Numbered from the stretch's first letter, positions 18,234 to 56,896 are shown. The stretch: DNA of 64,000 nucleotides from Candidatus Hydrogenedentota bacterium (GCA_963668025.2 CAXXTH010000017.1:160001-224000), one strand, 5' to 3'. Numbers and translations are program-made. The notes: a model not told the origin generated them from the letters alone.

Positions 18234-18421
18234 AAGAATCCATCACAATTCTGACGTATCACATCACATCACAGTGCGTATTGTATATTTATAAGCAGAG
18301 ATTGTCAATGGGCGGAAGTCCTCCCATGACCAATACGAGTAAGATCCTTTTTCTAAAAAAGAAGAAGACGTATAATTGTTCCTAAGATAAATGTGTATAG
18401 CCAATGGGGGAATTTGCCGGA

Positions 18422-21400
18422 ATGCCTGTTTTATCCTGGAATGAAATCCGCATGCGCGCCGTCGACTTTTCCCGCGAATGGGCGGGCGCACGGGAGGAAC
18501 GAGCCGAGGCGCAGACGTTCTGGAACGAGTTCTTCCATGTCTTCGGCATCCGCCGCCGCACGGTTGCGACCTTCGAAGAGCCTGTTAAAAGCCTGAAAAA
18601 CACCTATCACCGCATCGACCTATTCTGGAAAGGACGGCTTCTCGCCGAGCATAAAAGCGCGGGGGAGGATCTGGACAAGGCCAAATCGCAGGCTTTCCAG
18701 TATATACAAGAGCTTGTCGCTTCCGGCCGACAGGACGAAGTTCCCCGATACATACTGCTGAGCGATTTTAACCGCATGGTGCTTTATGACCTTGAACCGG
18801 AAGAAGGCGATCCGGAGCATGTCTCGTTTAATTTGATTGATCTGCATGCCCATCTTGGGCATTTCGCGTTCTTCATCGGGCAGAAGGTGCATCGGTTTGG
18901 CGAAGAAGACGAGGCCAACCTTAAAGCTGCGGCGATCATGGCCGATCTGCATGATGCTGTCTCCGAAGGGCATTACGACGCGAAATCCCTCGAACGCCTG
19001 CTGGTTCGCCTGCTGTTTTGCCTTTTCGCTGATGACACGGGCATCTTTGAATCCGCCCAGTTTGAATGCTTTATCCTGAACTGCACGCGCGAAAACGGCT
19101 CCGACTTAGGCGCACAACTTAACGCCCTTTTCGATGTGCTCAATACGCCTAGGGAGAAGCGGCCCAGTTATCTCGATGATGATCTGTCCGTGTTTCCATA
19201 TGTGAATGGCGAGCTGTTCAAGGAATCGCTGCCAGTCGCTGGATTCAGCGCCACCATGCGCAATGCTATCATCACCGCCTGCCGTTTCGACTGGTCGCGC
19301 ATTTCGCCCGCCATATTCGGCTCCCTGTTCCAGGGCATCATGGACGCCAAGGAACGCCGCCAGATTGGTGCGCATTACACTTCCGAACGCGATATCATGA
19401 AAGTGATCCGCCCCCTATTCCTCGATGCATTGCGGGAGGAATTCGAGCAAATTCAAAAAGATAGCAGGAAAAGCCATCGACAAAACCGCCTGATGGCATT
19501 GCGGCAAAAGCTCACCACCCTGCGTTTCCTGGATCCGGCCTGCGGTTGCGGCAACTTCCTCGTCATCGCCTACCGGGAACTACGCCGCTTGGAGCACGAT
19601 ATTCTGCATGAGCTGTATCTATTTAGTTTACATGGCGAGGAGCTTGATCTCGGTGAAGAAGGCCGGGTGTCCCGCGTCGATGTGGACCAGTTCTTCGGCA
19701 TCGAGATGGGCGAATGGCCTGCCCGCATCGCCGAGACCGCCCTCTGGCTCACGGACCACCAAATGAATCTTGAACTGTCCAAAGCCTCGGGCCATCTCTT
19801 CCAGCGCATACCCTTGCGGGCCGCGCCTCATATCCGATGCGCCAACGCCTTGCGTTTCGATTGGAATGACCTTCTTCCCTCCAAGGAATGCAGTTATGTG
19901 TTGGGCAATCCGCCTTTCGTGGGGGCAAAATTCCAGACCGCCAGCCAGAAAGTCGATGTGAAGCTGGTGGTGGGCGATGAGGACCACGCCGGATTGCTGG
20001 ATTACGTCGCTATGTGGTATTTCCTCGCCGCGCGATACATCAGGGGAACCCGCGTCCGCTGCGCCTTCGTGTCCACAAACTCCATCTCGCAAGGCGAACA
20101 GGTGGGCGTGTTGTGGTCGAAATTATACAGCCAGGGCGTCAAGATTCATTTCGCCCACCGCACGTTCGCATGGCAAAGCGAAGCGAAAGGCAAAGCCCAT
20201 GTCCATGTAATCATCATCGGATTCGGACTAGGAAATGTGGAAAAGAAACTGATCTATGAATATGAGGACATCAAAGGCGAGCCTAAAGCCATCGAAGTCT
20301 TTAATATCGCGCCCTATCTCGTCGAAGGAGGCGATATCACCATCCGCAACCGCATGAAACCGTTATGCGATGTGCCGGAGATTGGCATTGGCAATAAGCC
20401 GATTGATGGCGGAAATTATCTATTTGACGAAGAGGAAAAGGCGGCGTTCCTTGAACGCGAACCCAATGCGGAGAAGTACTTCCGCCCCTGGATAGGCTCG
20501 GTCGAGTTTCTTCATGGTTACCATCGCTGGTGTTTGTGGCTCGGTGACGCGTCTCCGAAGGAGTTGCGCGAGATGCCCGAGTGCCGGAAACGCATACAAG
20601 CAGTCAAACGATACCGTATGATGAGTAAAAGCTATCCCACAAGAAGATTAGCTGAAACACCGGAACGCTTCCATGTGGAGAATTTCCCTGAGAGCAGTTT
20701 TCTAGTACTTCCCGAAGTGAGTTCGGAAAAACGCAAGTATATTCCGATTGGTTATTTATCCCCTCCAGTGATTTGCAGTAATCTTGTTAAGATCATGCAT
20801 GATGCCACTCTCTACCACTTCGGCACCCTAACGAGCGCCATGCATATGGCCTGGGTGCGGCAGGTTTGCGGGCGGTTAAAATCGGATTTTCGTTATTCCG
20901 CCAAGCTCGTGTACAATAATTACCCTTGGCCGCTGGAGGCCACGGAAGCCAAGCGCGCGCGAGTCGAAGCATGCGCCCAGAAGGTGCTCGACGTGCGCCA
21001 GCGGTATCTGGATACAGGCAATACGCTGGCGGATCTATATGACGCGGTTTGCATGCCCGCCGTGCTGGTGAAAGCCCATATCGCCCTCGACCGCGCCGTG
21101 GACCGCTGCTACCGGCGCGAACCGTTTCCATCCGACCGCGAACGGGTCGAGTATTTGTTCGGCCTTTATGAATCCCTCACCGCGCCACTGGCGCCATCCG
21201 CGCCTGCTAAAAAATCGCGGCGGAAAAAACAGGTAATCGCATTCATTTTTTCTTCACCCGCTCCGCGACCAAGCAGGCCGCGCCGAGGGCTACGGCGTCA
21301 TCACCCAGGCGGGCGGCCACAAGGCGCACGCCTTGGCGCAGGAAAGGCATGGCGTGGTCCTCGATGCCGCGTGCGGCTTCATCGAGATAGAGCGCGGGCA

Positions 21401-21445
21401 TGGCCTCGACCAGCCCGCCGCCCAGCACCACCGCTTCCGGGCTGA
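18422..21445 (+). CDS. MmeI-like type IIL restriction-modification enzyme (true stop probably ~21236)
   Basis: LSWNEIR, EAQTFWNEFF, IDLFWKG.LLAEHKS (PD-ExK), GAHYTS, DPACGCGNFL, GNPPF and GRLKSDFRYS motifs. The last ~70 codons run into the antisense ROK gene. Confidence 0.92.
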   Translation: MPVLSWNEIRMRAVDFSREWAGAREERAEAQTFWNEFFHVFGIRRRTVATFEEPVKSLKNTYHRIDLFWKGRLLAEHKSAGEDLDKAKSQAFQYIQELVASGRQDEVPRYILLSDFNRMVLYDLEPEEGDPEHVSFNLIDLHAHLGHFAFFIGQKVHRFGEEDEANLKAAAIMADLHDAVSEGHYDAKSLERLLVRLLFCLFADDTGIFESAQFECFILNCTRENGSDLGAQLNALFDVLNTPREKRPSYLDDDLSVFPYVNGELFKESLPVAGFSATMRNAIITACRFDWSRISPAIFGSLFQGIMDAKERRQIGAHYTSERDIMKVIRPLFLDALREEFEQIQKDSRKSHRQNRLMALRQKLTTLRFLDPACGCGNFLVIAYRELRRLEHDILHELYLFSLHGEELDLGEEGRVSRVDVDQFFGIEMGEWPARIAETALWLTDHQMNLELSKASGHLFQRIPLRAAPHIRCANALRFDWNDLLPSKECSYVLGNPPFVGAKFQTASQKVDVKLVVGDEDHAGLLDYVAMWYFLAARYIRGTRVRCAFVSTNSISQGEQVGVLWSKLYSQGVKIHFAHRTFAWQSEAKGKAHVHVIIIGFGLGNVEKKLIYEYEDIKGEPKAIEVFNIAPYLVEGGDITIRNRMKPLCDVPEIGIGNKPIDGGNYLFDEEEKAAFLEREPNAEKYFRPWIGSVEFLHGYHRWCLWLGDASPKELREMPECRKRIQAVKRYRMMSKSYPTRRLAETPERFHVENFPESSFLVLPEVSSEKRKYIPIGYLSPPVICSNLVKIMHDATLYHFGTLTSAMHMAWVRQVCGRLKSDFRYSAKLVYNNYPWPLEATEAKRARVEACAQKVLDVRQRYLDTGNTLADLYDAVCMPAVLVKAHIALDRAVDRCYRREPFPSDRERVEYLFGLYESLTAPLAPSAPAKKSRRKKQVIAFIFSSPAPRPSRPRRGLRRHHPGGRPQGARLGAGKAWRGPRCRVRLHRDRARAWPRPARRPAPPLPG

Positions 21446-24139: not shown

Positions 24140-25126
<987 letters not shown>

Positions 25127-25172
25127 AAGTAGATATTAAACTCCTTTAGTAAAAATACTTTTTTCTTTTTTA

Positions 25173-25250
25173 CACAAAGACTCGAAGACACAAAGAGGCT
25201 ATAACCATTGGAATGTATCTTCAGTTTCCTTGTGTCTTCGAGTCTTTGTG
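25173..25250. repeat. 8-nt-periodic CAC-type inverted repeat
   Basis: CACAAAGACTCGAAGACACAA (25173-25193) and its perfect reverse complement (25230-25250). Confidence 0.85.
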
Positions 25251-25363
25251 GTGAACAAAAAAACGCTATTGCTGAATACACCTTGTTTGAAGCATATAAA
25301 ATGAAGGCAGGTTTGCTCAAATATGCATACCTGCCTTCTTTAAAACTACATCTTGCTTCGTAT

Positions 25364-26475
25364 CTACCGCAATATGGCCGCCTCGGTGTCCGCGTCGAAA
25401 TAGTGGCCTTGGCCATGTCCACATCCAGGACACGAGCCTTGTTGACGGGCGGTTCGGAGGTGGTGTCGATACGGGCGGTGACGGTGTGGCCAGCCACATC
25501 CAGGTAGAGGTAGATCTCGGAGCCCATGGGCTCGACAACCTCGACCACGGCGGTGATGCTCCGGCCTGGCGCGGCTTGCTGGGTGGGATTATCGATAAAG
25601 CTCTCCGGGCGGATGCCCAAGTAGACTTTCTTGCCCGTATATTTTTCGAGGGCGGCGCGGTGCGGCTGGGCCACTTCGAGTGACACTTGGCCGTTGCCGT
25701 CCGTGAAGTACATGGACCGCTTCTCCGCTTTAATCAGCCCCGTGACGAAGTTCATGGGCGGGCTGCCGATGAATCCCGCGACGAATTTGTTGACGGGCTT
25801 GTTGTAGAGTTCGAGGGTGTGAAGCGATCTGCTGGATGAATCCATCAAGCATCACCACGATGCGGTCGCCCATGGTCATGGCCTCGACTTGGTCGTGGGG
25901 TCACGTAAATCATGGTCGATTGCAGGCGCGTATGGAGCTTGCTGATCTCGGCGCGCATTTGAACGCGCAGTTTGGCGTCGAGGTTCGACAACGGCTCGTC
26001 GAAGAGGAATACCTTGGGCTGGCGCACGATGGCGCGGCCTACGGCGACACGCTGGCGCTGGCCGCCCGACAGGGCTTTCGGCTTGCGGTCGAGCAATTCC
26101 GTGATTTTGAGGATTTCGGTCGGCCTCGCGCACGCGGCGGTCGATCTCGTTTTTCGGATATTTGCGGAGCATGAGGCCGAAGGCCATGTTTTTGTAAACG
26201 GTCATATGCGGATACAGCGCGTAATTCTGGAATACCATGGCGATGTCGCGGTTCTTCGGCGGCACATCATTGACGAGCGTATCTCCAATATAAATCTCGC
26301 CTTCCGAGATCTCCTCGAGCCCCGCTATCATGCGGAGCGTCGTGGACTTGCCGCATCCCGAGGGGCCCACGAGGACGACGAATTCCTTGTCGTCGATGAC
26401 GAGATTAGCGTCATGCACGGCAACGACGTTGCCTGGATAGATCTTCTTGACATTTTTCAATTCGACACGCGCCAT
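25364..26475 (-). pseudogene. MalK/UgpC-type sugar ABC ATPase with several frameshifts
   Basis: [39 protein letters not shown] and the TOBE tail are split across frames; TAG at 25364-25366. Confidence 0.88.
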
Positions 26476-26727
26476 GATGTGAGGGCCTCCTACTCGGCAA
26501 AACCAAAATGATGACCGGAAAACCAACAGCCGCAAAACGAGAATAAGGATACTCGTTTGCATACTACTTGATGGAATTTTCCCAGTCAAGTTGGCCGGAG
26601 CGGCAAATTGGGCCCGAATTCACCTCTGGTTTTCGCCAGTTTCACAAAATCCAATGATTGTACGTATCGCAGATGGGGCTTTGTTGTTACTTTTTTAACA
26701 TGAAAGCTACCCCAATCCACCATGGCG

Positions 26728-27762: not shown

Positions 27763-28599
27763 ATGCGTCCCACGCTATTCCATGTATTCGGAACCAGCAT
27801 CCATGCCTACCCGGCCATGCTGGCCCTCGCGTTTATCGCGGGCACGTTGCTGGCGGTGCGTGATGCGGAGCGCCAGCAACTATGGCTTCCCCCCGAGATA
27901 GGATTATGGGCCTTTTTTGGCGCACTCATAGGAGCCAAGGCCTTTCATATTATTCAATATGATACGCCGTGGCATGTTTGGAAGGCGCTGTTGATCTGGC
28001 AGGGCGGGCTGGTGTTTTATGGCGGGCTTCTAGGCGGCATGCTGGCGGCGCTGTTGTTCACGCTTTCGCACAAGACGCCCCCCATTCTAACGGCGGATGT
28101 GATCGCGCCTTATCTGGCCTTGGGAGAAGCCATCACCCGGATCGGCTGTTTTTTGAATGGGTGCTGCTATGGCGCGCCAGCGCATGCGCCTTGGGCGGTC
28201 CAATTTCCCACCAACAGCCCCGCGCATCTTCGGCAGCGATTCGAGGGGCTCATTGGCCCTGATGCGCCTCTGCCGCTTCCGGTCCATCCAACCCAGTTGT
28301 ACATGATCGCGGGGCTGGCAGCCGCTTTTATCATCTTAAAACTCGTGCGGCGCCGGCAACGTTTTCATGGGCAGGTGGCCTTATTATATGCCGTTTTATA
28401 TGGGTTGATCCGTTTCACCGTCGAGATATTTCGCGGCGACAGCGCCCGTTCGGTAGCGGATATGACGGTTTCGCAGTCCATCAGCCTTGCGCTGATACTG
28501 ATTGGCGTGGCGATATATGGCGCCGCCATATGGCGGGGCTGGGGCGCAATCCCTTGTGAGGCGGGATGCGTTACGAAAGAAGCCGATGGGCATAGCTGA
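27763..28599 (+). CDS. lgt: prolipoprotein diacylglyceryl transferase
   Basis: GGLVFYGG, RIGCFLNGCCYG, HPTQLY and RFTVEIFR motifs. Confidence 0.92.
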   Translation: MRPTLFHVFGTSIHAYPAMLALAFIAGTLLAVRDAERQQLWLPPEIGLWAFFGALIGAKAFHIIQYDTPWHVWKALLIWQGGLVFYGGLLGGMLAALLFTLSHKTPPILTADVIAPYLALGEAITRIGCFLNGCCYGAPAHAPWAVQFPTNSPAHLRQRFEGLIGPDAPLPLPVHPTQLYMIAGLAAAFIILKLVRRRQRFHGQVALLYAVLYGLIRFTVEIFRGDSARSVADMTVSQSISLALILIGVAIYGAAIWRGWGAIPCEAGCVTKEADGHS

Positions 28600-28613
28600 T
28601 GCGTTTTTAGTTC

Positions 28614-29831
28614 ATGGCGCATAAGACAACACGGGATATGAGAAAAACGATGCGCGGACAGGTGATGCTACAAGGAGCAATGGCGGTATTGGCGCTAGGA
28701 TTCTGCGGCTGCTGGATGCTACCGGCCAAATTGAACGCGCCATTACAGCCAGGCCAAGCGCGGGCCATGCATGTCACGGAAAATTTTACCGCGAATACTG
28801 AAGGGGCCGCGAAAGGCGCAATCTTTAGCCAGAACGTAGACATGGTGATGCGCCTCCAGGCGGAAGCAAGTGGAAATGGCGGCCAATCACGTATCTCGGC
28901 GGCATTCGATTCATTCAATTTGACGCAAGCAGGCACGGCGGGGCCCTTAGTATTCGCCCATCCGCCCATCCCGGTTATTGCGCGGTTCATTGCACCGGAT
29001 CTGTCTGGGGTAATAGGGAAATCGATTTCGTTCGCCAGGACGCCTGATGGCCGGATATCTGAATTGGAAGGACACGACGCCCTGCTGGCCGCCATGCATG
29101 TTCCAAGCGACTTGTCGCCCATCATGTCCGCTTTGAAATACCCCAGGTTATCCAAAGCACACGCCGAGGAAATCAGCAAAAAGCGTATGGCTCAGCTCGA
29201 ACGACGGTTTAACGCTGAAGGCGAAACGGCATTTTTCCAAAATCTATTGGTGATGCGGCCGGATAAATCCATGCGGCCAGGGGAATCCTGGAGTGAAACT
29301 GGGCTCTATGTGGGAGAACTGCCCGTGCCCGCCACCTTTACGTACACCATTCGCTCGAAAAACGCCATGCGTGTGATCGCGGATGTATCTATCACCATAC
29401 CCGAACAGGAAACCGCCGAACCGTTCTGCTTGACCTTCGGCGAAATGACGCTCCGGTTCAAAGAAGGCAAAGGCGAAGGCGAGGTTTGGCTGGATCCAAA
29501 AACAGGCTGGCTCCTGCGAAGCCATTTCGCCATTGATGCATCGGGGGAAATCACCCCCAGCCGGACATTTGACAAGAAAGCGCTTCCGTTCACCATGCGT
29601 TTGACCAAGAACGTTACCGTATCGATTGCTGATGGCACACCTGTTCCTACACCTGAATCCGTTCCTACACCTGAATCCGTTCCAGCACCTGAAACTGTTC
29701 CAGCACCTGAAACTGTTCCAGCACCTGAAACTGTTCCAGCACCAGAAGCTGCTCCAGCACCAGAGGCTGTTCCTGCGCCAGAAACCGTTCCTGCATCGGA
29801 ACCGCCCTCTACACCTGCGCAAGCACAATAG
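28614..29831 (+). CDS. putative lipoprotein (DUF6263-like) with Pro-rich repeat tail
   Basis: Lipobox-like FCGC; paralogous to the next gene (IGKSxxF, W.E/D, D..TGW); start uncertain. Confidence 0.75.
   Translation: MAHKTTRDMRKTMRGQVMLQGAMAVLALGFCGCWMLPAKLNAPLQPGQARAMHVTENFTANTEGAAKGAIFSQNVDMVMRLQAEASGNGGQSRISAAFDSFNLTQAGTAGPLVFAHPPIPVIARFIAPDLSGVIGKSISFARTPDGRISELEGHDALLAAMHVPSDLSPIMSALKYPRLSKAHAEEISKKRMAQLERRFNAEGETAFFQNLLVMRPDKSMRPGESWSETGLYVGELPVPATFTYTIRSKNAMRVIADVSITIPEQETAEPFCLTFGEMTLRFKEGKGEGEVWLDPKTGWLLRSHFAIDASGEITPSRTFDKKALPFTMRLTKNVTVSIADGTPVPTPESVPTPESVPAPETVPAPETVPAPETVPAPEAAPAPEAVPAPETVPASEPPSTPAQAQ
29643..29804 (+). repeat. 18-bp coding tandem repeat, 9 units of (VPAPET)-type
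   Basis: GTTCCAGCACCTGAAACT-type units within the lipoprotein 3' end. Confidence 0.9.
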
Positions 29832-29925
29832 TTGCGGCGGCCCTATTGAACCAATGGCTTCATTATGCTATTACATCGGTATCGGGGCATGGTTCTCAAC
29901 CGCACACGAAAGAGGGGTTCATGAT

Positions 29926-30822
29926 ATGAGGACGCATCGCATTGCATTTTCCATGGCTGCTGGATTGTTTGTATTCGTTTTCTTGGCGGGGTGCTCGAGC
30001 AAACCCAATTTTGACTTGCGCCTGAAAGCGGGCGATGTGCGCCAAGTAGAAAGCATCTCCACATCGGCGACCAGCATGCAGGTCATGGGCCAGAGCATGA
30101 AAATAAAAACCAGCGCGGAATATGCGATGGAGTTGAAAGTCGATGGAATCGGGGCGGATTCCGCCGCCAAAATCACCGCCACCTATACCAAATACAACAT
30201 CGATTTAAACATGGATGGAGCCAAGATCGGCAACCTGGATCTAGGCGAAAAAATGAAATCGCTGCTGCCCGACTTTAGTTCTCTCATAGGAAAATCCTTC
30301 ACGTTTGAAATCCTGCCCAACGGCTCGATCCGCAATATGATCGGCCACGACGAAATCATGAAGGTTGTCTTGGACAAAATGGCTCTGTTGACTCCGGATA
30401 GCATGGCCGCCCAACTAAGCAATGAACAAATGTCCAAAATCCTAGAAGCGCAATTATCCGTGCATCCAGGCCAGCAAGTACGCGTGAAAGATACCTGGAC
30501 GGATACCGTTAAAGATCCGGGATTGAAGATGGCGGTGCAGCGCACCTTCACGTTGAAAGAACGCTCGAAGGGCATGCTGCTGCTGGATGTGCAATTGAAA
30601 ATCGATAACGCGGCCATCGAAGGAGCAGGCGGCGGGCCCATGGGTGAAATGAAAGTATCAGGCCAAGGTTCGGGCACAATGCAGGTGGACGAGAACACCG
30701 GCTGGGTCGCCAGCAGTGATATCACCATCCAAGCCAGCGGCCAAGCGGGTGCGGGCGTGATGCAAATCCCCGTGAGCGTCGAAGCGGCATCTAAGTTCAC
30801 CTCCACGCCCGCTGTGAAATAA
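29926..30822 (+). CDS. lipoprotein (DUF6263-like)
   Basis: MRTHR...FLAGC lipobox; IGKSFTF, DTW and DENTGW motifs. Confidence 0.8.
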   Translation: MRTHRIAFSMAAGLFVFVFLAGCSSKPNFDLRLKAGDVRQVESISTSATSMQVMGQSMKIKTSAEYAMELKVDGIGADSAAKITATYTKYNIDLNMDGAKIGNLDLGEKMKSLLPDFSSLIGKSFTFEILPNGSIRNMIGHDEIMKVVLDKMALLTPDSMAAQLSNEQMSKILEAQLSVHPGQQVRVKDTWTDTVKDPGLKMAVQRTFTLKERSKGMLLLDVQLKIDNAAIEGAGGGPMGEMKVSGQGSGTMQVDENTGWVASSDITIQASGQAGAGVMQIPVSVEAASKFTSTPAVK

Positions 30823-30975
30823 GGCGGATGGGGTGGAAAAATAGCCCAAAGAGATTCACCACCAAGAGGCATATCATCCAAAAGGAAATACATGGCCAAA
30901 TGGTTTATTACATATAATGAACGATAACGTTTTTGTGCCTTGGCGTCTTTGTGGTTAATAAAAACGGTTCAAAAT

Positions 30976-31065
30976 ATGACTGAAACCCATACGCCTGAAT
31001 TCACCTTGCTGATGCCGTGCCTCGACGAGGCGGAAACCCTCGCCGCGTGCATCCGCGCGGCGCAA
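30976..31065 (+). pseudogene. duplicated 5' fragment of the downstream glycosyltransferase gene
   Basis: 30981-31056 matches 34272-34347 at 73/76 bp; encodes MTETHTPEFTLLMPCLDEAETLAACIR. Confidence 0.92.
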
Positions 31066-31222
31066 TTTAAAGTGATAGGACGTATTAGCGGGCTTGTCAT
31101 CGCAGTTGTTCTATAATCTGCGTTCATTTTGTTCCAAAATCATCGCACATTTTACGGAGGTTAATATATAGTAGTACAAGAGATTGTATATACACTTTCG
31201 CAAGTTTGTGAGGATATCTGCT

Positions 31223-31813
31223 ATGCCGAAAAACGCAATACACCTGAAAATTTTCCTAATGGTGATTCTGTTTGGACTTCCTGTGGTTGCACAAAGCGAA
31301 GAAGGCAAGAGTGCATCCGAACAAAAAGACACCGAACTCATTACCGGAGTGACTCTAGACAGTCCCGACAAGACACATTCTCTATCGGTAAAGAAAGACG
31401 AAGCCGCTGGAGGGGAAATCATACTGAAAGATTTTCGTTCTGGTGAAGAGCGGGAAGTTTATGAATATCCCCGAAGCATCTCCGCCATCTGGTCGCCTAA
31501 TAGCGCGTTGTTCCTACTCAACGATGCGGGAGGAAGTGATTATTCTGACTGCTTGGTTTACATCTTGAATGACAAGACACTCATCGATCTTCAAGATATC
31601 CTGAAAGCAAATAAATCATTGAAAGGGTTCTCCGATGATATACCCGGCAAATCCTATCTAGAGGCCAAGAGATGGATCTCAAATAAACGAATAGAACTCA
31701 CTTTGGATGGTTGGATAGATACGGACATAGACGGATCGGGATTGTATGATTTTAATTTGAAACTTATATTCGATCTAGACAAAAAGTCATTTGAAGTGAT
31801 ATCAAAAAAATGA
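31223..31813 (+). CDS. low-GC secreted hypothetical protein (beta-rich)
   Basis: Signal peptide (IFLMVILFGLPVVAQS); SPD/WSPNS propeller-blade-like motifs. Confidence 0.7.
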   Translation: MPKNAIHLKIFLMVILFGLPVVAQSEEGKSASEQKDTELITGVTLDSPDKTHSLSVKKDEAAGGEIILKDFRSGEEREVYEYPRSISAIWSPNSALFLLNDAGGSDYSDCLVYILNDKTLIDLQDILKANKSLKGFSDDIPGKSYLEAKRWISNKRIELTLDGWIDTDIDGSGLYDFNLKLIFDLDKKSFEVISKK

Positions 31814-32638
31814 AGCGCTTCAAAGTCGGCGCAGACATGCCGAATAGCCATAAAAAATAAAAATAACATTACATCCACTTGTAAAAGAATGATATGTAAT
31901 GCCAAATTGCCATAAGAAGCAATTTGGCACATAAACCAGTGAATATATGAGTATGGAAAAATGGCGAACACGGGCTTTGATAAATTCGAGTCTTCTGTCT
32001 CATCGTTACATGCGATATTTCTGCTAGTGTGGCAAGATAACCTTAAATATCTCGATAATGAGCAACCTCAATGCTTATGCAAGTGGGAAGACAGAGGAAA
32101 TGAAAGTGATTTGTCGACGCCCCCATTCTGGAGTGAGGAATTCTATCGAAATGTGATTTGGTTAGCAGATAGTTATTCATACTTGAAGATGTTCTATGAA
32201 AATGGAAGACATGATCTGCTTTCGGATAGCAACATACGAGGGAGCGGATTATATTCAAAGGTGAGTTTAAGCTGGTTTACATTCAAGGCAGCGCTGGGCT
32301 CAATCAGCAATACTACTCACGAAACATCAGAAGTATTTTATAGGATTCAACAGGACTTTGAAGATGGCGTATTCCTGGTACTGCGAAAAATACAAAAGAA
32401 GAAACCATATAAACCGTTCAAGTGGCGTGAACTTATTCAAAGCGAAACGCCAAAAAGCTTGATTGATCTTGATGAACTACCTGATATCAAACGTTTTTTG
32501 CATCCTTTTGCATTGGCTGAAAAAGTTATCTATTCAAACAGAAGGCTATTTGTTTCTCAATCATGTAGAGTAATGAAACAATTACAAGAACTATCATTTG
32601 CAGTCTCCTTCATTCTAAATGAAAGCAAAGTAGGAAAA

Positions 32639-34008
32639 GGGTGCTCCCTCAATATGATAACCTCAATTGACCCCGTGGCGGGCCACGTGTTGCCAGAACT
32701 GGTCCCAACGGCCCTCGGTCATCTCCAGCGACCTGAGCGCGATCACCGCGCTCGCGCCCGCTTCCTTCCACCGCATCCCGGAGCATGCCAGGCGTTGCTT
32801 GATCAGCGTCTTGCACGCCGCCTCCGTCACTCCGCTGCCGATGGGAAGGCGCTCCGCCGTGTGCCGCCAGTATTGCATCTTCGAGCGGTGATTGCCGAAG
32901 TAGGTGATCGCCTTGCCGAGTTCCTCGCGGCAAGCCTGGGCGCGCACGCTTGGCAAGCTCGCCTTCATCTCCTCCAGCAAGCGTCCGGCTGCGCCCCTCG
33001 TGTGCTTCAGCCGGTGACTCCAGTCCGCCTCCCACTCCCGGCGGCGCGCGCCATGACCGTGAATCGCCTCCGCCGCCTTCCCCACGTATTCCCGCGCGTG
33101 ATAGAAATCCAGCATCTGCCGGTCCGTGCGCGGCGTCAAAAACTTCCAGTTGTCCGGCGCGCCGTCGGCCAGGCCGATATACAGCGCCGCCGGGTGCCTC
33201 GCCCTCACGCGCTCCACCTCGCGGCCGAAGCGCTCGAGGAAAGTCTGCTTGCCGTACTCGGGCGATGCGCCCGCGTAGATCGTGTGCAGCCGCTCCCCGT
33301 CCTTGTCGTACAGGCTGATGGACCCGCACATCGCCTGACGCCAGCCGTCCTCCCTGAGCAGCATGCAGGTGCCGTCCAGGCCCACGGCCACCGACGCGAC
33401 CGGCCTGTCCAATTCCGGCAGCTCGTACTCCCACGTCTCCTCCCTGGCCTGCGCCAGGGCGCCCACAAAATCGCCGATCTTCTTCACATAGTCGCGCGAG
33501 ATTGCGCGGCCTGTCGACTCGAGCAGGTCGCGGCGCATGACATCGGCGCCCATGCGGGAGTATTTGCCGCTGACGATCCGGGCGTAGCGCGGCGTGGCGT
33601 TCATGACCATTCGCGCGTCCCGCTCCAGCGGGCAGAAGGTGCGCCCGCCCGTGGCGGTGTTCTGGTAGACGTGCCGCTCGACGCGGACCGGGCCGTGGGG
33701 CGTCTCGTAGGTCTGGCCGAAGCGCCCCTTGGTTTTGAAGGTGGTGGCGCCGACGCGGATGGGCGAGCCGTCTGTGTCGAAACGGGCCAGGGCCTCGGCC
33801 ATGACTGCGCGCCCCACCCCGTTCAGGGCCTCCTGGACCGCCTCCTCCATATCGAGCATCGAACCACGCAGCCTCAGCGAGAAACTCACCTCGAACGTGT
33901 CGCCGTCGCGCCTTGTCACCATCGCTGCCATCGGTCTTCCTCCGTTAAGGGTCCGGCATACTTATCGACCCGACACGAGGATTTCTTTAGCATTCTGCGG
34001 GAACACCC
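32639..34008 (-). mobile_element. ISKra4-type insertion sequence (1370 bp)
   Basis: Imperfect TIRs GGGTGCTCCCTCAATATG / GGGTGTTCCCGCAGAATG; 8-bp TSD TAGGAAAA at 32631-32638 and 34009-34016; high-GC body inside low-GC flanks. Confidence 0.93.
32663..33931 (-). CDS. ISKra4-family DDE transposase
   Basis: GLDG, ADGA, LDFYHA and PIGSGVTEAACKTLIKQRL..SGMRW motifs. Confidence 0.92.
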   Translation of the reverse strand: MAAMVTRRDGDTFEVSFSLRLRGSMLDMEEAVQEALNGVGRAVMAEALARFDTDGSPIRVGATTFKTKGRFGQTYETPHGPVRVERHVYQNTATGGRTFCPLERDARMVMNATPRYARIVSGKYSRMGADVMRRDLLESTGRAISRDYVKKIGDFVGALAQAREETWEYELPELDRPVASVAVGLDGTCMLLREDGWRQAMCGSISLYDKDGERLHTIYAGASPEYGKQTFLERFGREVERVRARHPAALYIGLADGAPDNWKFLTPRTDRQMLDFYHAREYVGKAAEAIHGHGARRREWEADWSHRLKHTRGAAGRLLEEMKASLPSVRAQACREELGKAITYFGNHRSKMQYWRHTAERLPIGSGVTEAACKTLIKQRLACSGMRWKEAGASAVIALRSLEMTEGRWDQFWQHVARHGVN

Positions 34009-34266
34009 TAGGAAAATACGATTTACCCACATTCTATTCATTGATTGCATATCTGCATGGAATTGTAATAACACTTGAAAAAGAGTCAAATCTATTGCGG
34101 TATATTGTTGTTGGGATTTTCAATCTCTAGATATTCAGTAAAAACGATACGCGTATTCTCCCTGATGCGCGAAATTATTGCGCAACACCAGCGATAAGCT
34201 ATAGTGTCCTTGTGTCTTAGTGCCTTTGTGATGAAAAAACATACAGTATGTATTAGAGTGCATTGG

Positions 34267-35436
34267 ATGGTTGAAACCCATACGCCTGAATTTACCTTGC
34301 TGATGCCGTGTCTTGACGAGGCGGAAACCCTCGCCGCGTGCATCCGCAAAGCACAGTCGTGCGCGGAACGGCTCGGTCTCGACGCCGAGGTGCTGGTATC
34401 GGATAACGGCAGCGCCGACGGCTCGCCCGAGATCGCCCGGCAATGCGGCGCGCGGGTGGTGCGTGCCGAAGAACGGGGCTACGGGGCCGCGCTGATGGCG
34501 GGCATCGAGGCGGCGCGGGGACGCTATATCATCATGGCCGACGCGGACGAAAGCTACGATTGGTCGGCCCTTGATGGTTTCGTCGAGCAGCTCCGGGCGG
34601 GAGGCCAATTGGTCATGGGCTGCCGGTTTCCCCAAGGCGGCGGCGTGATCGAGCCGGGCGCCATGCCGAAATTACACCGCTTTCTCGGCACACCGCTCTT
34701 GAGCGGCATGGCGCGGCTGTTCTTCGGCTGCCCTGTGACGGACATCAACTGCGGCATGCGGGGTTTCGCGCGCGAGGCTATCCTTGGCCTCGAACTGCGC
34801 GCCACGGGCATGGAGTTCGCCTCGGAGATGATCGTCAAGGCGTCCCTCGCGGGCCTGCGCATCCGCGAGACGCCCATCACGCTTCACCCAGACCGCCGGA
34901 CGCGCCCGCCCCATTTGCGCACATTCCATGATGGCTGGCGGCACCTGCGATTCATGCTGTTATATAGTCCGCGTTGGCTGTTTCTCGTGCCGGGGCTGCT
35001 GCTCCTCGCTTTTGGCGTCCTTGGTTTCGCGCTGATACTGCCGGGCCGGCTGCGCATCGGGGGGATCGAGTTTGATGTAAACACCCTGCTCGTGTGCGCC
35101 CTCTCGATCCTTCTGGGTGCGCAATGCATCGCCTTCGGCATTTTTGCGAAGGTTTTCGCCATCTCCGAGCGCCTGCTGCCGGATGATCCCTTGCTGCGGC
35201 GCTTGTTCACGCGGATTAAGCTAGAAGCAGGCCTGCTGTTGGGTGCGGGTATCGGATGCCTTGGCTTTTTGCTATTGCTGGGAGGCGTGGGGTATTGGGC
35301 CTGGCACGATTTTGGCAAGATTCCGTATCCCGTGGGCTTGCGCATCGTGATCCCGGCCGTCACCTGCATCACGCTGGGCGCGCAGGTGGTGCTTTCGAGC
35401 CTGTTCCTCAGCATTCTAGGCATGAAACGGAAGTAG
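34267..35436 (+). CDS. GT2 polyprenol-phosphate glycosyltransferase-like protein with C-terminal TM helices
   Basis: MPCLDEA, DNGSADGS, RGYG, MADAD and GMEFASEM motifs. Confidence 0.93.
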   Translation: MVETHTPEFTLLMPCLDEAETLAACIRKAQSCAERLGLDAEVLVSDNGSADGSPEIARQCGARVVRAEERGYGAALMAGIEAARGRYIIMADADESYDWSALDGFVEQLRAGGQLVMGCRFPQGGGVIEPGAMPKLHRFLGTPLLSGMARLFFGCPVTDINCGMRGFAREAILGLELRATGMEFASEMIVKASLAGLRIRETPITLHPDRRTRPPHLRTFHDGWRHLRFMLLYSPRWLFLVPGLLLLAFGVLGFALILPGRLRIGGIEFDVNTLLVCALSILLGAQCIAFGIFAKVFAISERLLPDDPLLRRLFTRIKLEAGLLLGAGIGCLGFLLLLGGVGYWAWHDFGKIPYPVGLRIVIPAVTCITLGAQVVLSSLFLSILGMKRK

Positions 35437-35460
35437 ACCACCGCCGGAACGGCTGGAGTA

Positions 35461-35609
35461 CAGGGTAATCGCATTAAAAACAGCCCAGATTTAGCCACAA
35501 AAGGCACAAGGGGCACAAGGAAGAATTATTTTTGTGTTTTGTGAGCCTCTTGCGGCTCATTTTCCGGCGATAGAGAAAAGAAATAAGACTTTTTGATGCG
35601 ATTGTCGTG
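35461..35609. mobile_element. MITE-like element enclosing a 9-nt-periodic CAC hairpin
   Basis: Imperfect 20-bp IR CAGGGTAATCGCATTAAAAA / TTTTTGATGCGATTGTCGTG (16/20) around CACAAAAGG-CACAAGGGG-CACAAGG. Confidence 0.55.
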
Positions 35610-35703
35610 GGTCCCTAAACCTCAGAAAGCATAAAAAAGTTTCGCACTTTCCATGCGTCTTTACATTGAGAGAGGTAAAGCAAGCCAAATGTACTAGCAC
35701 ATT

Positions 35704-35766
35704 GTCATTCCCGCGAAAGCAGGAATCCACAGAAACGCCCCGGATCCCCGCCTTCGCGAGGATGAC
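35704..35766. repeat. REP doublet (GTCATTCCCGCGAAAGC.GGAATCC type)
   Basis: Two inverted imperfect palindromes at 35704-35728 and 35742-35766. Confidence 0.8.
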
Positions 35767-35836
35767 GTTGTTAGGTATATCTAGCCTTTACCGTGTTTTT
35801 TTGGTTGAGGCTGGGCCGCGATGAACTGGAGTATAC

Positions 35837-37534
35837 ATGAACATCCTTGGCGTTAACGCCTTCAACCATGAACCCAGCGCATGTCTTATTTCAGATGGCC
35901 GCGTCGCCGCCGCCATCGAGGAAGAAAAGGCGGTGCATCGCAAGTACGTCGTAGGTTTTCCCGAACGCGCTATCCGGGAATGCCTCGCACTTGCAGGCGT
36001 GAAGCCTTCACAAGTGAATGTGGTGGCTTTGCCCCGGCGGCACGGCTTCGAGCTTCGCGCGCATGCGATGCATATGCTCCGGAATTTCCCCCGCAGCCTA
36101 AATCTGTTGCGTTCCGGCAGCGCCGCCATCGGCGGCGATATCAAGCGGGAGCGCTACCTGCATCTGCGGGGGATGCTCCGCCATGTGCTGCATCCCGGCG
36201 TTAAGATCGTCGAAGTGGGCCACCACGAGGCCCATGCGGCGTCGGTCTGTTTTCAAAGCGAATGGGATGATCTCGCCATCGCCGTGGCCGATGGCATCGC
36301 GGAGTTTGACACTACATGGCTTGGCGCGGCGGAGGGCGGACAGCTCCGCTCCCGCGCCACGACGCCTTTTCCCCATTCCTTGGGCATGGCCTATGCCGCC
36401 GTGACACAGTTTCTCGGATTCGAACCTTTCAACGACGAATGGAAAGTCATGGGCATGGCCGCCTACGGCGCGCCGCGTTATTATGAGGAATTGCGTCCCT
36501 TGCTGGCCGCCACGCCGGATGGACACGTGCGCATTGACTGCAAGGCCTTCGACTTCCCGTGCTATGGCCGCAAACGCTGGTTTAGCGATGCCTTCCGCCT
36601 ACGCGGACTCGAGCGCGCGCCGGATGCGCCCATCTTGCAGGAGCATTACGATTTCGCCCGGTCGTTCCAGTCGGTTATCGAGGACACCCTGCTCGAACTG
36701 CTCCGCTATGTGCGGGAGGCCTATCCCGAAAAACGGCGGCTGGGCCTCAGTGGCGGCGTGTTTCTCAATTGCCTGTTCAATGGCCGCCTGGCGGAACAGG
36801 GGCTTTTCGATGAAATCTATGTAGACTGCAATCCCGGCGACGCAGGCACGGCCTTGGGCGCGGCCTGCCATGCCTGGCGGGCAAGCATGAGCCGCATGCC
36901 CAAGCCCATGGCCCACGACAACCGCCTGGGCCGGGCCTTCGGACCCGATGCCATACGTGAGGCCATCGAGCGCGCGGGGCTGTCCTGTACGGAATTGCAG
37001 AACCCGGCGGATGTAGCGCGCCTTATCGACGGCGAGCGCATCATCGGGCTCTTCGAGGGGCGCAACGAGTTCGGCCCCCGCGCATTGGGCGCGCGCAGCA
37101 TTCTGGCGGACCCGCGCCTGCCCCAGATCAAAGACATCATCAATAGCCGCGTAAAATACCGCGAACACTTCCGGCCTTTTGCGCCGTCCATCCTCGAAGC
37201 GCACCAAGAGGATTGTTTTGCGGCGAAGATGTTCTCGCCGTATATGTCCTTTGCACTTCGTGTAAAGAACGGCGTGGCCGCACGCATGCCCGCCGTCATC
37301 CACGCCGATGGCACGGCCCGCATCCAGACGGTGAGGCCCGGAAACAACCCCTTCTACCATGCCGTGATCGAGGCGTTTTACCAGCGCACCGGCGTCCCGG
37401 CGGTCCTCAACACCTCGTTCAACATTCGCGGCGAACCCATCGCCTACACGCCCCAGGACGCCATCGAGACATTCAAACGCGCCAATCTCTCCGCGCTGGT
37501 GCTATGGCCGTATGTGATCGAAGCGGCGAAGTGA
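35837..37534 (+). CDS. carbamoyltransferase (NodU/CmcH family)
   Basis: HHEAHAAS, KVMGMAAYG, GDAG, EFGPRALGARSIL, KYREHFRPFAP and LNTSFN motifs. Confidence 0.94.
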   Translation: MNILGVNAFNHEPSACLISDGRVAAAIEEEKAVHRKYVVGFPERAIRECLALAGVKPSQVNVVALPRRHGFELRAHAMHMLRNFPRSLNLLRSGSAAIGGDIKRERYLHLRGMLRHVLHPGVKIVEVGHHEAHAASVCFQSEWDDLAIAVADGIAEFDTTWLGAAEGGQLRSRATTPFPHSLGMAYAAVTQFLGFEPFNDEWKVMGMAAYGAPRYYEELRPLLAATPDGHVRIDCKAFDFPCYGRKRWFSDAFRLRGLERAPDAPILQEHYDFARSFQSVIEDTLLELLRYVREAYPEKRRLGLSGGVFLNCLFNGRLAEQGLFDEIYVDCNPGDAGTALGAACHAWRASMSRMPKPMAHDNRLGRAFGPDAIREAIERAGLSCTELQNPADVARLIDGERIIGLFEGRNEFGPRALGARSILADPRLPQIKDIINSRVKYREHFRPFAPSILEAHQEDCFAAKMFSPYMSFALRVKNGVAARMPAVIHADGTARIQTVRPGNNPFYHAVIEAFYQRTGVPAVLNTSFNIRGEPIAYTPQDAIETFKRANLSALVLWPYVIEAAK

Positions 37535-37574
37535 GCCACGGAAGGGTGCAAATATAGTTCATTCAGATAATTTA

Positions 37575-37720
37575 CCACCAAGGCACAAAGACACAAGGAG
37601 GCTCATAGGAATTTTATTGTATTTATATATATGATATATTTGATTTCAGCACCCTTAAGAAATAAACAGGGCAGACTAACAAGCGTTTATAACTCCTTGT
37701 GTCTTCGTGTCTTTGTGTTG
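37575..37720. repeat. 8-nt-periodic CAC-type inverted repeat around an AT-rich spacer
   Basis: CCACCAAGGCACAAAGACACAAGGAG ... CTCCTTGTGTCTTCGTGTCTTTGTGTTG. Confidence 0.8.
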
Positions 37721-37769
37721 AAAAGATCCGGCGTCACTGCCCCGGCGTTGCGCCATGTATTCCTTCGAC

Positions 37770-38480
37770 CTAAGATTCCCGCATCCGCCGGGTGTATTCC
37801 GTCCATTCCGTCTGGGCGTTGCGTTCCCGGATGCGGTCCGCGATGCCCGGTTCCGCCAGGGCGATGGCTTCAAACACCTTGTTCGCGATGAGCATGTTGC
37901 CAAGTTTGTTCGGATGCACCGTATCCTGATGCACCAAGTGGTCTTTGCATCCTTCGGCGCTCCAGACGTCGGCATAGATGCAATCCGTCGACTCCGCCAA
38001 ACGGCGCAGCATGGCATTGTATTGCTGGGTGGCCTCGACGCTGCCCCGGTCGAAAGGCGGATAGTACCGAAATGACGCGATGTGGTAGACGTTGACGATG
38101 ACGATCGCCGCGTCCAGGGCGTCACGCAACCGGGTGAGGATGGCTTTGATTTCCACTTCAAACGCTTCGGGGGCCATGCCCGCCCGCATATCGTTGAGTC
38201 CGTATGCGATGACCACCAAGTCCGGCCGATGGGCGATGACCTCGCTATCGAGCCGTTCCGACGCGCTCGGTTTGGTGGATTCGGCGTACCCAGGGCTTTG
38301 CGGTGATATCACGCTGGCGCCGACGCCGGCATTGTGATACATGATCGAGCTTTCTTGGGCCGTCTCGAGCAAATGCCACAATAAGTCGGCCCATCGTTCG
38401 CTGGCCTGCGCCAGCCATCCGCCCCCCTCGACCACGCTGTCTCCCAACACCACCAGCGATTTGAACGGACCTTTTGCCAT
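37770..38480 (-). CDS. SGNH/GDSL hydrolase
   Basis: LGDS, NAGVG, GLND and DTVHPN blocks. Confidence 0.92.
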   Translation of the reverse strand: MAKGPFKSLVVLGDSVVEGGGWLAQASERWADLLWHLLETAQESSIMYHNAGVGASVISPQSPGYAESTKPSASERLDSEVIAHRPDLVVIAYGLNDMRAGMAPEAFEVEIKAILTRLRDALDAAIVIVNVYHIASFRYYPPFDRGSVEATQQYNAMLRRLAESTDCIYADVWSAEGCKDHLVHQDTVHPNKLGNMLIANKVFEAIALAEPGIADRIRERNAQTEWTEYTRRMRES

Positions 38481-56604: not shown

Positions 56605-56844
56605 AGCTGCTCCCATTGGCGCACTCCGTGCGCATGGGCTTGATTATGGCACAGAGGCATGCCTGTTTTCGCACCGCATGCTCGGCATATGGCCGCCACA
56701 TGACCGAATACAATAAGAAACCTTGTATATGCGGCCAATGTCAAGGGAACAATCCAGGAAACCGGGACAACTCAGGGACGCACGCCAATGCCGGCCCGAA
56801 ATGCTCCGCACAGAGTGCCAGCGGCTTCCCCACATAGCATAAAG

Positions 56845-56884: not shown

Positions 56885-56896
56885 ATTGACATTATA

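Follow-up and report, generated by a model that had tools for sequence, protein, structure and literature searches.

We analysed a stretch of 64,000 nt from a Candidatus Hydrogenedentota bacterium (GCA_963668025.2 CAXXTH010000017.1:160001-224000), hereafter the window, in whose positions all coordinates are given, and searched the genome that contains it (6.15 Mb, 24 contigs). The locus holds a low-GC insert (the cargo) between two copies, A and B, of the start of a glycosyltransferase gene, together with arms of a GTG/CAC-rich repeat (the CAC repeat) and an insertion sequence (IS). The features are, in order:

29626-30822, + strand: upstream resident gene of the DUF6263 family (Pfam PF19777, E 6.7e-23; GC 0.53)
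30854-30967, no strand: CAC hairpin element 5' of copy A, complete but degenerate (5' arm ~30854-30872; 3' arm 30932-30967)
30976-31056, + strand: repeat copy A, the glycosyltransferase ATG plus 26 codons (repeat search, BLAST, alignment)
31024-31056 (in the other copy 34315-34347), + strand: 33-nt stretch that is the same in both copies (alignment)
31057-32638, + strand: cargo, left part (GC 0.39; a single copy per genome by BLAST)
31223-31813, + strand: ORF1 (196 aa; N-terminus resembling a signal peptide; without Pfam/NCBIfam match)
31961-32638, + strand: N-terminal 226 codons of ORF2, interrupted by the IS (frame resumes at 34017-34130)
32639-34008, - strand: ISKra4-like insertion sequence, 1370 bp (transposase 32663-33931; NCBIfam NF033572)
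34017-34266, + strand: cargo, right part (GC 0.36; ORF2 tail to 34130, 136-nt spacer, solo CAC 3' arm)
34267-34347, + strand: repeat copy B, with which the intact gene begins (repeat search, BLAST)
34267-35436, + strand: intact family-2 glycosyltransferase, 389 aa (GC 0.63; Pfam PF00535)

The insert is bordered by a direct duplication of a shared segment that is sharp at both ends. The direct-repeat search recovered 30976-31056 and 34267-34347 (81 nt, 94% identical) and whole-genome BLAST 30981-31056 and 34272-34347 (76 nt, 96.05% identity, E 5.6e-28), with no third copy of the patch found by BLAST in any of the 24 contigs of the 6.15-Mb genome. A preceding sequence-only reading had reported 76-bp direct repeats of the first ~26 codons of the glycosyltransferase, each copy with its own ATG (30976 in A, 34267 in B); both points were confirmed, the repeat search extending the duplicated segment to 81 nt including the ATG. 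That its three mismatches (TTC/TTT, TGC/TGT, CTC/CTT) are all synonymous third positions holds for the 76-nt part, the translations of the two copies being identical over residues 3-27, and codon 2 differs as well (ACT in copy A vs GTT in copy B, T/V). Since the reading frame of copy A stops at 31116 after 46 codons, this copy is a stump. The final 33 nt are free of mismatches (31024-31056 = 34315-34347), for which simple arithmetic from three differences in 76 nt gives a chance of ~1 in 4. The likeness breaks off sharply past codon 27 and fades within a few bases 5' of the ATG; beyond 31056/34347 the copies share 5 of 9 bases (GCG GCG CAA vs AAA GCA CAG), with A-Q at codons 29-30 in both, which may be due to chance. 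Were there no constraint, all three differences in codons 3-27 would be synonymous with a probability of 0.013 (random substitutions) or 0.042 (random transitions), which argues that the two versions diverged while both were working gene starts and that neither is a decaying local duplicate. At each of the three sites copy A has C and copy B has T, and this T bias agrees with the low GC of the cargo attached to copy B.

A duplication of this kind might arise in the assembly itself, through wrongly phased copies, collapsed haplotypes or cargo that belongs elsewhere. Neither repeat copy is bridged by a contig of the four short-read runs, and the phasing of the copies depends solely on the assembly, which also counts against the single-crossover reading set out below. 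The contigs end inside the 33-nt core, however, as they must in a k = 31 graph (those of run X5 at 31053 and 34344), and on both left flanks the contigs of runs X5 and X6 match the window at 100% identity. A 3439-nt contig of run X6 joins 31352-32666 to DNA of contig C18 ending at 365369, but this is a blunt join within ORF1, away from the repeat, while ORF1 is intact in the window: an independent, 61%-identical homologue shares its signal peptide, and we therefore take the window's version to be the intact one. The fact that 21 near-identical 1.37-kb IS copies were resolved suggests, moreover, that long reads were used. We regard an assembly origin as the least probable of the explanations considered.

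Without the IS the cargo measures ~1.9 kb and has a GC content of 0.36-0.39, compared with 0.63 for the glycosyltransferase gene and 0.53 for the upstream neighbour; by BLAST it is unique within this genome. Its two AT-rich ORFs gave no Pfam, NCBIfam or PADLOC match and no significant PHROG match, and the family searches thus uphold the earlier description of two AT-rich orphan genes with no integrase between the copies. ORF1 is predicted to be beta-rich, with a weak likeness to TolB/PD40 propeller blades (AF2 pLDDT 67; Foldseek TM about 0.4), and has two database relatives, one of them on a contig from the same or a near-identical strain. ORF2, once the IS is removed together with one copy of the target duplication, encodes 263 aa in a frame that runs through 34017-34130, and two very large protein searches returned 0 relatives for it. 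The IS (32639-34008) splits ORF2 between the two copies of an 8-bp target duplication (TAGGAAAA, at 32631-32638 and 34009-34016) and ends in terminal inverted repeats GGGTGyTCCC; 21 near-identical copies occur genome-wide, 17 of the 20 full ones with a perfect 8-bp duplication. Its transposase matches NCBIfam NF033572 below the cut-off (E 5.5e-57, 193.8 bits vs 205), and the element is best named ISKra4-like. The split ORF, the target duplication and the inverted repeats agree with the earlier view that the IS is younger than the cargo: it arrived later, by ordinary transposition.

Att-like direct repeats derived from the target gene (81 nt, 94%) are present at both ends of the insert, and they could represent attL and attR of a remnant or non-autonomous element that replaces the 5' end of its target, in the manner of SXT at prfC, the integrase having been deleted or acting from elsewhere in the genome. 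The genome has 11 tyrosine-recombinase matches and contains six integrase islands (5.9-19 kb) bordered by 45-214-nt imperfect (87-100%) repeats of the tRNA target end, and the insert shares with these a short imperfect target-end duplication and an intact gene on one side. The perfect 33-nt stretch lies on the side of the expected strand exchange, and synonymous-only divergence would suit an element selected to restore its target. Yet all six islands target tRNA genes and none a protein gene, the att-like sequence has no further copy in the genome, the patch is missing from 2.9 million viral contigs and the cargo from 72,556 plasmids. An element-encoded tyrosine or serine recombinase was not found with Pfam and NCBIfam, neither as a gene or recognisable remnant in the 1.9-kb cargo nor within ~15 kb on either side, which speaks against the single-crossover reading as well; the nearest PF00589 match (57878-58315) lies 23 kb off, inside another island. 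Site-specific integration appears to us an improbable origin of the insert.

A profile of the CAC arm, made from 55 genomic copies (nhmmer), substantiated the earlier observation of a 3' arm upstream of each ATG: at 30932-30967 for copy A, a weak match (E 1.3e-3) that ends 8 nt before the ATG, and at 34207-34243 for copy B (E 4.8e-9), ending 23 nt before it. Cognate arms pair in the fold at copy A (-28.4 kcal/mol, z -2.68), whereas the arm at copy B is solo and has no pairing partner in the fold. Another CAC hairpin is located at 25165-25265 (fold z -7.75) and a further CAC-like hairpin at 35480-35570; no Rfam family matches in 28000-38000. Genome-wide the family numbers 76 arms in 51 elements, with 58 of the 76 arms intergenic and the elements dispersed across the genome (20 of the 31 clusters consist of single elements). 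Of the 41 genomes searched, only this one (28 occurrences) and one relative (a single occurrence) contain the strict pattern, which the remaining 39 relatives lack; the CAC family, made up of intergenic hairpins, is specific to the lineage.

The sequence-only reading had suggested that these repeats guide the capture of cassettes at operon junctions along an undescribed, integrase-free route. Such a route might involve a nuclease or a hairpin-binding recombinase. The position of an arm 8-23 nt upstream of both ATGs would suit such a route, and for both short spacers to hold an arm the chance is only ~2 in 10,000 under independence (a simple calculation from the density of intergenic arms, 58 per ~0.68 Mb of non-coding sequence); however, the repeat is locally dense regardless (six arms in the 64-kb window vs about 0.8 expected from 76 arms in 6.15 Mb) and the arm at copy A is a weak match. 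CAC elements are also commoner at sharp composition shifts than other intergenic sites (GC difference >0.12 at 10 of 51 elements vs 5.4% of 2761 intergenic controls, Mann-Whitney P 6e-5), a statistic that is inflated because elements within clusters are not independent. The genome further holds 20 matches to Y1_Tnp (HUH), which may count in favour of such a route. Against it, the duplicated unit is the coding patch and not the repeat. When the proposed genome-wide association of duplicated gene starts with CAC repeats was checked, this locus was the only one among 49 local two-copy direct repeats that combined a truncated gene start with an adjacent CAC repeat, and a more sensitive scan round all 51 elements gave no second gene-start duplication. 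It remains a single case, and a new repeat-guided route of capture, the same anatomy being given by known mechanisms, was not borne out; we rate it as highly doubtful.

We tentatively favour, with somewhat less than half of our confidence, a one-off insertion of a small foreign DNA, most likely a circle, by a single crossover through the gene-start patch. The incoming piece would have been ~1.9 kb of foreign DNA, most likely circular, from a close relative with CAC repeats, and would have consisted of the two low-GC orphan genes, the spacer that holds the solo CAC arm, and a patch of 81 nt corresponding to the gene start. Most likely it brought along a diverged gene start of its own, as the sequence-only reading had said; this is the most economical account of the sharp ends and the synonymous-only C/T differences, with further support from the complete hairpin at copy A vs the solo arm at copy B. 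As the strict CAC pattern occurs almost only in this genome, the CAC arm at the end of the cargo suggests that the donor belonged to the same lineage. The six integrase islands of the genome, each bordered by an imperfect copy of its target end, obey a comparable principle, which also speaks for this reading. The crossover, which we would place within the patch and probably in its 33-nt identical 3' stretch, would insert the entire circle into the gene and thereby duplicate the patch: the left copy A would keep the resident promoter side and now read into the cargo as a 46-codon stump, and the right copy B would be the incoming patch joined to the resident gene body. With copy B fused in this way the enzyme would still be encoded whole, its transcription now starting within or passing through the cargo, and the gene would survive the insertion because the patch spans exactly its start. 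The ISKra4-like element transposed into ORF2 afterwards. The exchange may have been the work of host RecA or of a site-specific recombinase that acted in trans or has since been lost. With 81 nt, 33 of them in a perfect stretch, the patch is close to the lower limit for RecA-dependent recombination. The CAC hairpins would be ordinary intergenic repeats of the lineage and bystanders, at most local recombination-prone sites, and the single-crossover model explains the paired arms by donor relatedness and the dense local repeat alone. No empty site, donor or circular form was seen among assembled contigs, which break at the 33-nt core, and one case does not allow generalisation.

If recombination between the patches could also release the circle, the insert might be a recombinase-free, self-perpetuating cassette, with the CAC hairpins as break-prone or protein-bound start sites; the released circle could then insert itself again, at this gene start, into any related genome and leave the gene unharmed. 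To this extension of the single-crossover model we assign a very low, though not negligible, probability.

A single crossover leads to the same end product as homology-facilitated illegitimate recombination in which codon 27 is the illegitimate joint. In the latter case, a linear fragment would have come from a close relative whose own glycosyltransferase allele was naturally preceded by ORF1, ORF2 and the solo CAC arm. Homology would have anchored the fragment inside the gene, downstream of codon 27, and its other end would have been joined illegitimately at that codon of the resident gene, leaving the first 27 resident codons as the stump. A single event would suffice, no circle or recombinase being required, and the 5 of 9 shared bases beyond the boundary could be junction microhomology. 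The glycosyltransferase itself matches Pfam PF00535 Glycos_transf_2 (E 1.3e-20, 74.4 bits vs a gathering cut-off of 23.3) and reaches the cut-off of none of the NCBIfam equivalogs, the nearest named models being of the AglJ and dolichyl-phosphate-hexose-transferase types (all under cut-off). Its closest homologues (59% identity in metagenome contigs, 50% in relatives' genomes) lack synteny throughout, and 0 of 91 loci with a homologue hold a relative of any neighbouring gene; as the neighbours are not conserved, a donor with different upstream genes is plausible. The donor arrangement, on the other hand, was not found in sequence searches that included relatives, metagenome contigs and plasmids, and in spite of 96% identity in the coding part the likeness ends within a few bases 5' of the ATG, which fits a discrete patch better than alleles with their flanks. 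The process usually deletes or replaces recipient DNA and gives a duplication only if the illegitimate joint lands in the anchored gene. It is a documented process to which displaced gene remnants have been ascribed (PMC5361080, PMC3240628), but in the E. coli results given in PMC3240628 most events that looked like it were single crossovers with duplication. We consider this origin possible but rather unlikely.

Several known systems resemble the locus in part. The CAC element is similar to REP/BIME-like palindromic repeats in its many dispersed, mostly intergenic and hairpin-forming copies; it differs in the 9-10-nt period of its GTG/CAC triplets and in being nearly restricted to this genome among the 41 searched. 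An integron gene cassette, for which an adjacent IntI-type integrase with attI and cassettes ending in attC would be expected, does not fit, as the neighbourhood holds no recombinase and the CAC hairpins are dispersed genome-wide. The tRNA islands of the same genome target tRNA 3' ends and each carry their own tyrosine recombinase, unlike the cargo. SXT/R391 elements at prfC integrate, like the insert, into the 5' end of a gene, and SXT reportedly (Hochhut and Waldor in 1999) supplies prfC with a new gene start and promoter; SXT is, however, ~100 kb long and has its own tyrosine recombinase and excisionase, as opposed to 1.9 kb and no recombinase here. The minimal mobile elements of Neisseria, as outlined in PMC3787668, are integrase-free variable cargo between conserved flanks that is swapped by homologous recombination, but the flanks are two conserved genes and no duplication is left. 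Homology-facilitated illegitimate recombination, described for Acinetobacter, Streptococcus pneumoniae and Pseudomonas stutzeri and proposed to explain displaced remnants of T6SS effectors in Vibrio cholerae (PMC5361080), is alike in its integrase-free uptake, its one homologous anchor and the remnants of displaced resident genes; its usual result is deletion or replacement and not a clean duplication, and the T6SS remnants described in that paper's account are 3' parts with immunity genes rather than a 5' stump. In Campbell-type integration, finally, the homologous segment is directly duplicated at both borders of the insert, as it is here, and the copies can differ wherever donor and recipient alleles do. 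According to PMC3240628, when a circular molecule integrates by single crossover the homologous segment ends up on either side of the insert, and in E. coli 109-950-bp duplications were found beside it in 56 of 60 clones; our patch, at 81 nt with a perfect core of 33 nt, is shorter and its circle is conjectural. Circle integration by single crossover, site-specific integration at a 5' end and homology-facilitated illegitimate recombination would, by comparison with these systems, each give the same anatomy, and the arrangement is what established recombination routes ordinarily produce and not a new mechanism of capture.

The 5' end of the family-2 glycosyltransferase gene occurs twice in the window: a repeat search recovered a direct repeat of 81 nt (the patch; copy A at 30976-31056, copy B at 34267-34347, 94% identity), and whole-genome BLAST aligned 76 nt of it at 96% identity (E 5.6e-28) and retrieved no third copy from the genome (6.15 Mb, 24 contigs). 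Both copies open with an ATG. They differ in codon 2 (ACT in A vs GTT in B) and encode an identical peptide over codons 3-27, with three synonymous third-position differences (TTC/TTT, TGC/TGT and CTC/CTT) and none in the final 33 nt (31024-31056 / 34315-34347). The likeness fades a few bases 5' of the ATG and stops sharply past codon 27; copy A reaches a stop after 46 codons. Repeat search, BLAST and translation thus bore out the sequence-only reading, which had described a 76-nt direct repeat with three synonymous mismatches and an ATG for each copy. A scan with the sigma-70 consensus, from which host promoters may differ, yielded no plus-strand promoter-like site 5' of either ATG. The span between the copies (3,215 nt) and the gene that follows it contain:

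31223-31813: ORF1, 196 aa, with a signal-peptide-like N-terminus
31961-32638, resuming at 34017-34130 after removal of the insertion sequence: ORF2, 263 aa
32639-34008, minus strand: ISKra4-like insertion sequence (IS), 1,370 nt, with a transposase (NF033572, 193.8 bits, just below the cut-off of 205)
34267-35436, plus strand: family-2 glycosyltransferase headed by copy B, 389 aa (PF00535, 74.4 bits)

The IS ends in terminal inverted repeats (GGGTGyTCCC) and is flanked by a target duplication of 8 bp (TAGGAAAA); since it splits ORF2 it arrived later than the cargo (the low-GC DNA between the copies), as had been proposed from the sequence. The 21 copies in the genome are 99.8-100% identical, and a perfect 8-bp duplication is found at 17 of the 20 full ones. 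Two other copies (C17:516031-517400 and C17:965778-967147) carry swapped target duplications (CTCCCAAC/CTTCACAG vs CTTCACAG/CTCCCAAC), the mark of an inversion of ~450 kb via recombination between them.

Once the IS and one target copy are subtracted, the unit from start to start measures 1,913 nt and is unique in the genome (BLAST). Its GC content (0.39 in the left and 0.36 in the right part of the cargo) lies below that of the resident upstream DUF6263 gene (0.53) and of the glycosyltransferase (0.63). The cargo ORFs have no match in Pfam, NCBIfam or PADLOC and a single one in PHROGs (E 0.081), and no recombinase was found inside the insert or within ~15 kb on either side, so that the description of two AT-rich orphan genes lacking an integrase holds. 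For ORF1 two database relatives were recovered, one 61% identical with the same N-terminus and the other a 99% copy with a foreign N-terminus; its predicted model is beta-rich (pLDDT 67, moderate), with weak TolB/PD40-like matches (TM ~0.4). ORF2 had no relative in a word-indexed protein search or in an exhaustive HMMER search of 1.84 billion representatives. Atlas look-alikes, Tsi1-like for ORF1 (0.88) and penicillin-amidase-like for ORF2 (0.97, low recognition, 1832), serve as leads only. The viral contigs searched held neither the patch nor a relative of ORF1, the plasmids searched had no match to the cargo, and Rfam gave nothing credible over 28000-38000 (two matches at E 0.3-0.7, far under the gathering scores). 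The closest NCBIfam models for the glycosyltransferase, all under cut-off, are of the AglJ and dolichyl-phosphate-hexose types.

Both gene starts lie next to members of a family of intergenic GTG/CAC-periodic hairpin repeats (CAC elements), the arms of which have a consensus like TCCTTGTGTCTTnGTGyCTTTGTGGTGAAA. A profile made from 55 strict copies found 76 arms in the genome at E < 0.01, 58 of them outside crude gene calls that cover 89% of the genome; at E < 0.05 there were 81 arms, grouped into 51 elements (30 two-arm hairpins and 21 solo arms), and 20 of the 31 clusters hold one element. Good copies fold strongly (e.g. 25165-25265, z -7.75). This genome has 28 occurrences of the strict pattern, against a single one in one relative and none in the remaining 39 searched, and the family is nearly confined to the studied genome among the 41 searched, which makes it a lineage marker. 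The window contains:

25172-25198, 25226-25262, 30932-30967, 34207-34243, 37561-37601 and 37691-37730: six CAC arms (profile search)
35480-35570: further CAC-like hairpin (fold)

Together these leave hardly any intergenic spacer from 25 to 38 kb without a CAC copy. A GC shift of more than 0.12 was seen at 10 of the 51 elements vs 5.4% of 2,761 intergenic controls, an enrichment that is a lead and not a finding because clustered elements are not independent. The family is a separate object of modest interest, lineage-bound and commoner at composition boundaries. At C23:323124-328129 three tandem paralogous genes of 431 aa have a two-arm element between each (period ~1.63 kb), and here the repeat was duplicated along with its gene unit. 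The strong hairpin at 25172-25262 overlaps the 3' end of the MalK OB/TOBE frame (25111-25848) of a minus-strand MalK-type ABC ATPase (25111-26589), which is apparently in two frames (ABC_tran at 25876-26589); the split may be a frameshift or a miscall of crude ORF picking. A second dispersed palindromic family of ~50 nt, unrelated to CAC (e.g. C18:362987-363036), was matched dozens of times over several contigs, the same sites being hit in either orientation.

The CAC 3' arm that had been reported upstream of each ATG is indeed present at both, and the two sides are not alike: copy A is preceded by a complete, degenerate element (30854-30967) with pairing arms (z -2.68), copy B by a solo, near-consensus 3' arm. 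A local duplication followed by decay of copy A is unlikely, since divergence is far greater in the arm (about one third) and the spacer (unalignable) than in the coding patch (4%, synonymous only). All three differences in codons 3-27 would be synonymous by chance with a probability of 0.013 if substitutions were random and of 0.042 under random transitions, and every variable site has C in copy A and T in copy B, a direction that agrees with AT-rich DNA attached to B. The synonymous-only differences, the C/T bias and the whole hairpin at A vs the solo arm at B together argue that, before being brought together, each copy had served as a functional allele of its own. Most likely, the version in copy B came with the cargo, in line with the original proposal that the cargo carried its own diverged allele of the gene start and so restored the gene. 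The donor was probably a close relative, because the arm on the B side belongs to the lineage-specific CAC family.

We favour integration of a circle of ~1.9 kb via the 81-nt patch, because the hallmark of a single crossover of a circle with the chromosome is a discrete, sharp-ended patch present on either side of the insert; strand exchange would have taken place in the 33-nt identical stretch, carried out by RecA or by a site-specific recombinase. In E. coli, as described in a section of PMC3240628, 56 of 60 apparently illegitimate integrants were single crossovers with duplications of 109-950 bp. In the main rival, a linear fragment takes its anchor within the gene and is joined illegitimately at codon 27, which yields the same product; this rival is based on the homology-anchored illegitimate joining of linear DNA treated in part of PMC5361080.

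The sequence-only reading had gone further, to an undescribed capture route guided by the CAC repeats, which predicts that duplicated gene starts and CAC elements go together genome-wide. A self-comparison of the genome gave 221 local direct pairs, from which we kept the 49 two-copy pairs of 40-600 nt with at least 85% identity and at most 30 kb apart, and listed their open frames and nearby CAC matches. These sort into parts of paralogous genes, tandem units and the ends of six integrase islands, and in no pair but that of the studied locus does a truncated gene start adjoin a CAC repeat. All 51 elements were also scanned more sensitively for repeats of 28 nt or longer with a copy no more than 200 nt away from the element, and five elements were flagged: two belong to the studied locus, two lie on contig C13 and one is beside tandem paralogues. 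The C13 pair (45897/46272) was ruled out as a second example, being a tandemly duplicated non-coding promoter-like unit (C13:45766-46335, period ~380 nt, upstream of a low-GC gene cluster), in each copy of which a CAC hairpin precedes a 64-nt promoter-like block (TTGACT and TATTCT 17 nt apart; 94% identity across units). The pair C17:1497831/1499411 was likewise ruled out, lying inside tandem paralogues of ~405 aa. With one case in 49 pairs and 51 elements the association is absent and the proposed route is not supported. That the unit is a recombinase-free cassette alternating between a circular and an integrated state, the exchange being initiated at CAC hairpins, is very unlikely.

Parts of the window were found in six public sequencing runs, and the assembled contigs of four were compared; none of these bridges a copy of the repeat. 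The contigs of runs X5 and X6, which carry the label of one organism, match both left flanks of the window exactly. They end within the 33-nt core (at 30638-31053 and 34117-34344 in X5), as expected of a graph with k = 31; the X5/X6 contigs thus confirm both contexts and cannot phase them. We consider mis-assembly of the locus very unlikely in view of the exact match of both left flanks and of the 21 near-identical IS copies, the resolution of which suggests that long reads were used. Contigs of X1, a wastewater metagenome, cover the DUF6263 gene, the body of the glycosyltransferase and the spacer after it at 93-98% identity, leave 31136-32470 uncovered (itself not evidence), and include one that matches up to 30866 and continues unlike the window. 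This pattern would fit a relative without cargo; no contig joins 31056 to 34348. Two joints were reported near the locus, in X3 (from 30960 to 34210, across 34 other letters) and in X5 (from 31031 to 34807); their short sides span 21 and 23 letters, and both are probably artefacts of repeats or conserved motifs. One X6 contig (3,439 nt) matches the window at 31352-32666 only, and its remainder is encoded on C18, ending at 365369, as shown by protein P0002, which was called on a contig of equal length and is the ORF1 copy with a foreign N-terminus of 31 residues. The join at 31352 is blunt and free of microhomology, couples the antisense strand of a C18 gene to the middle of ORF1, and stems either from a rearranged sub-population or from a chimeric contig. 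The window version of ORF1 is the intact one, because an independent homologue has the same N-terminus.

The best match of the glycosyltransferase is 50% identical in the genomes of 40 relatives and 59% identical in metagenome contigs. The 91 homologue loci contain no relative of Lgt, either DUF6263 gene, ORF1 or ORF2, nor of the carbamoyltransferase, the GDSL lipase or the next ORF. GC content over 34267-37534 (glycosyltransferase 0.63; downstream carbamoyltransferase ~0.60-0.65 in the composition profile) is well above the 0.55 of the genome, and neither of these two genes has conserved neighbours in the 91 loci; the block may have been acquired earlier in its own right. Elsewhere in the window, 18404-21445 encodes a 1013-aa restriction-modification enzyme of the MmeI type (type IIL), which is complete and shows each of the five MmeI Pfam domains.

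The flanking duplication has its counterpart in six tRNA islands of this genome, where an imperfect copy (45-214 nt) of the 3' end of the targeted tRNA flanks each island. One is in the window:

56842-62920: tRNA-Met integrase island of 5.9 kb, between imperfect repeats of 104-106 nt with 93% identity (56842-56945 / 62816-62920)
57083-58399: tyrosine recombinase of this island, 438 aa
62872-62948, minus strand: intact tRNA-Met

The other five, elsewhere in the genome, are at tRNA-Val (two), tRNA-Asn, tRNA-Pro and tRNA-Lys. The studied insert shares their signature and is not a member of such integrase-bearing islands, as the defining recombinase is absent from it; nor is it an integron cassette. 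A literature search for the phrase 'cis mobilizable element' gave no match. Since the supporting genome-wide test failed, no new class of mobile element is opened. The locus is a clean natural case, from a poorly studied candidate phylum, of foreign genes placed inside the 5' end of a working gene that stays intact; a duplicated gene start with synonymous-only differences is the mark of patch-mediated insertion, and the locus can be used as a ready test site for excision and re-integration assays. Entry into the 5' end of a gene is a known strategy of SXT/R391 elements, as set out in a portion of PMC2791158, and the event is a patch-mediated insertion that restores its target gene, of a known kind: what is new is the cargo and the precise target, not the type of event.
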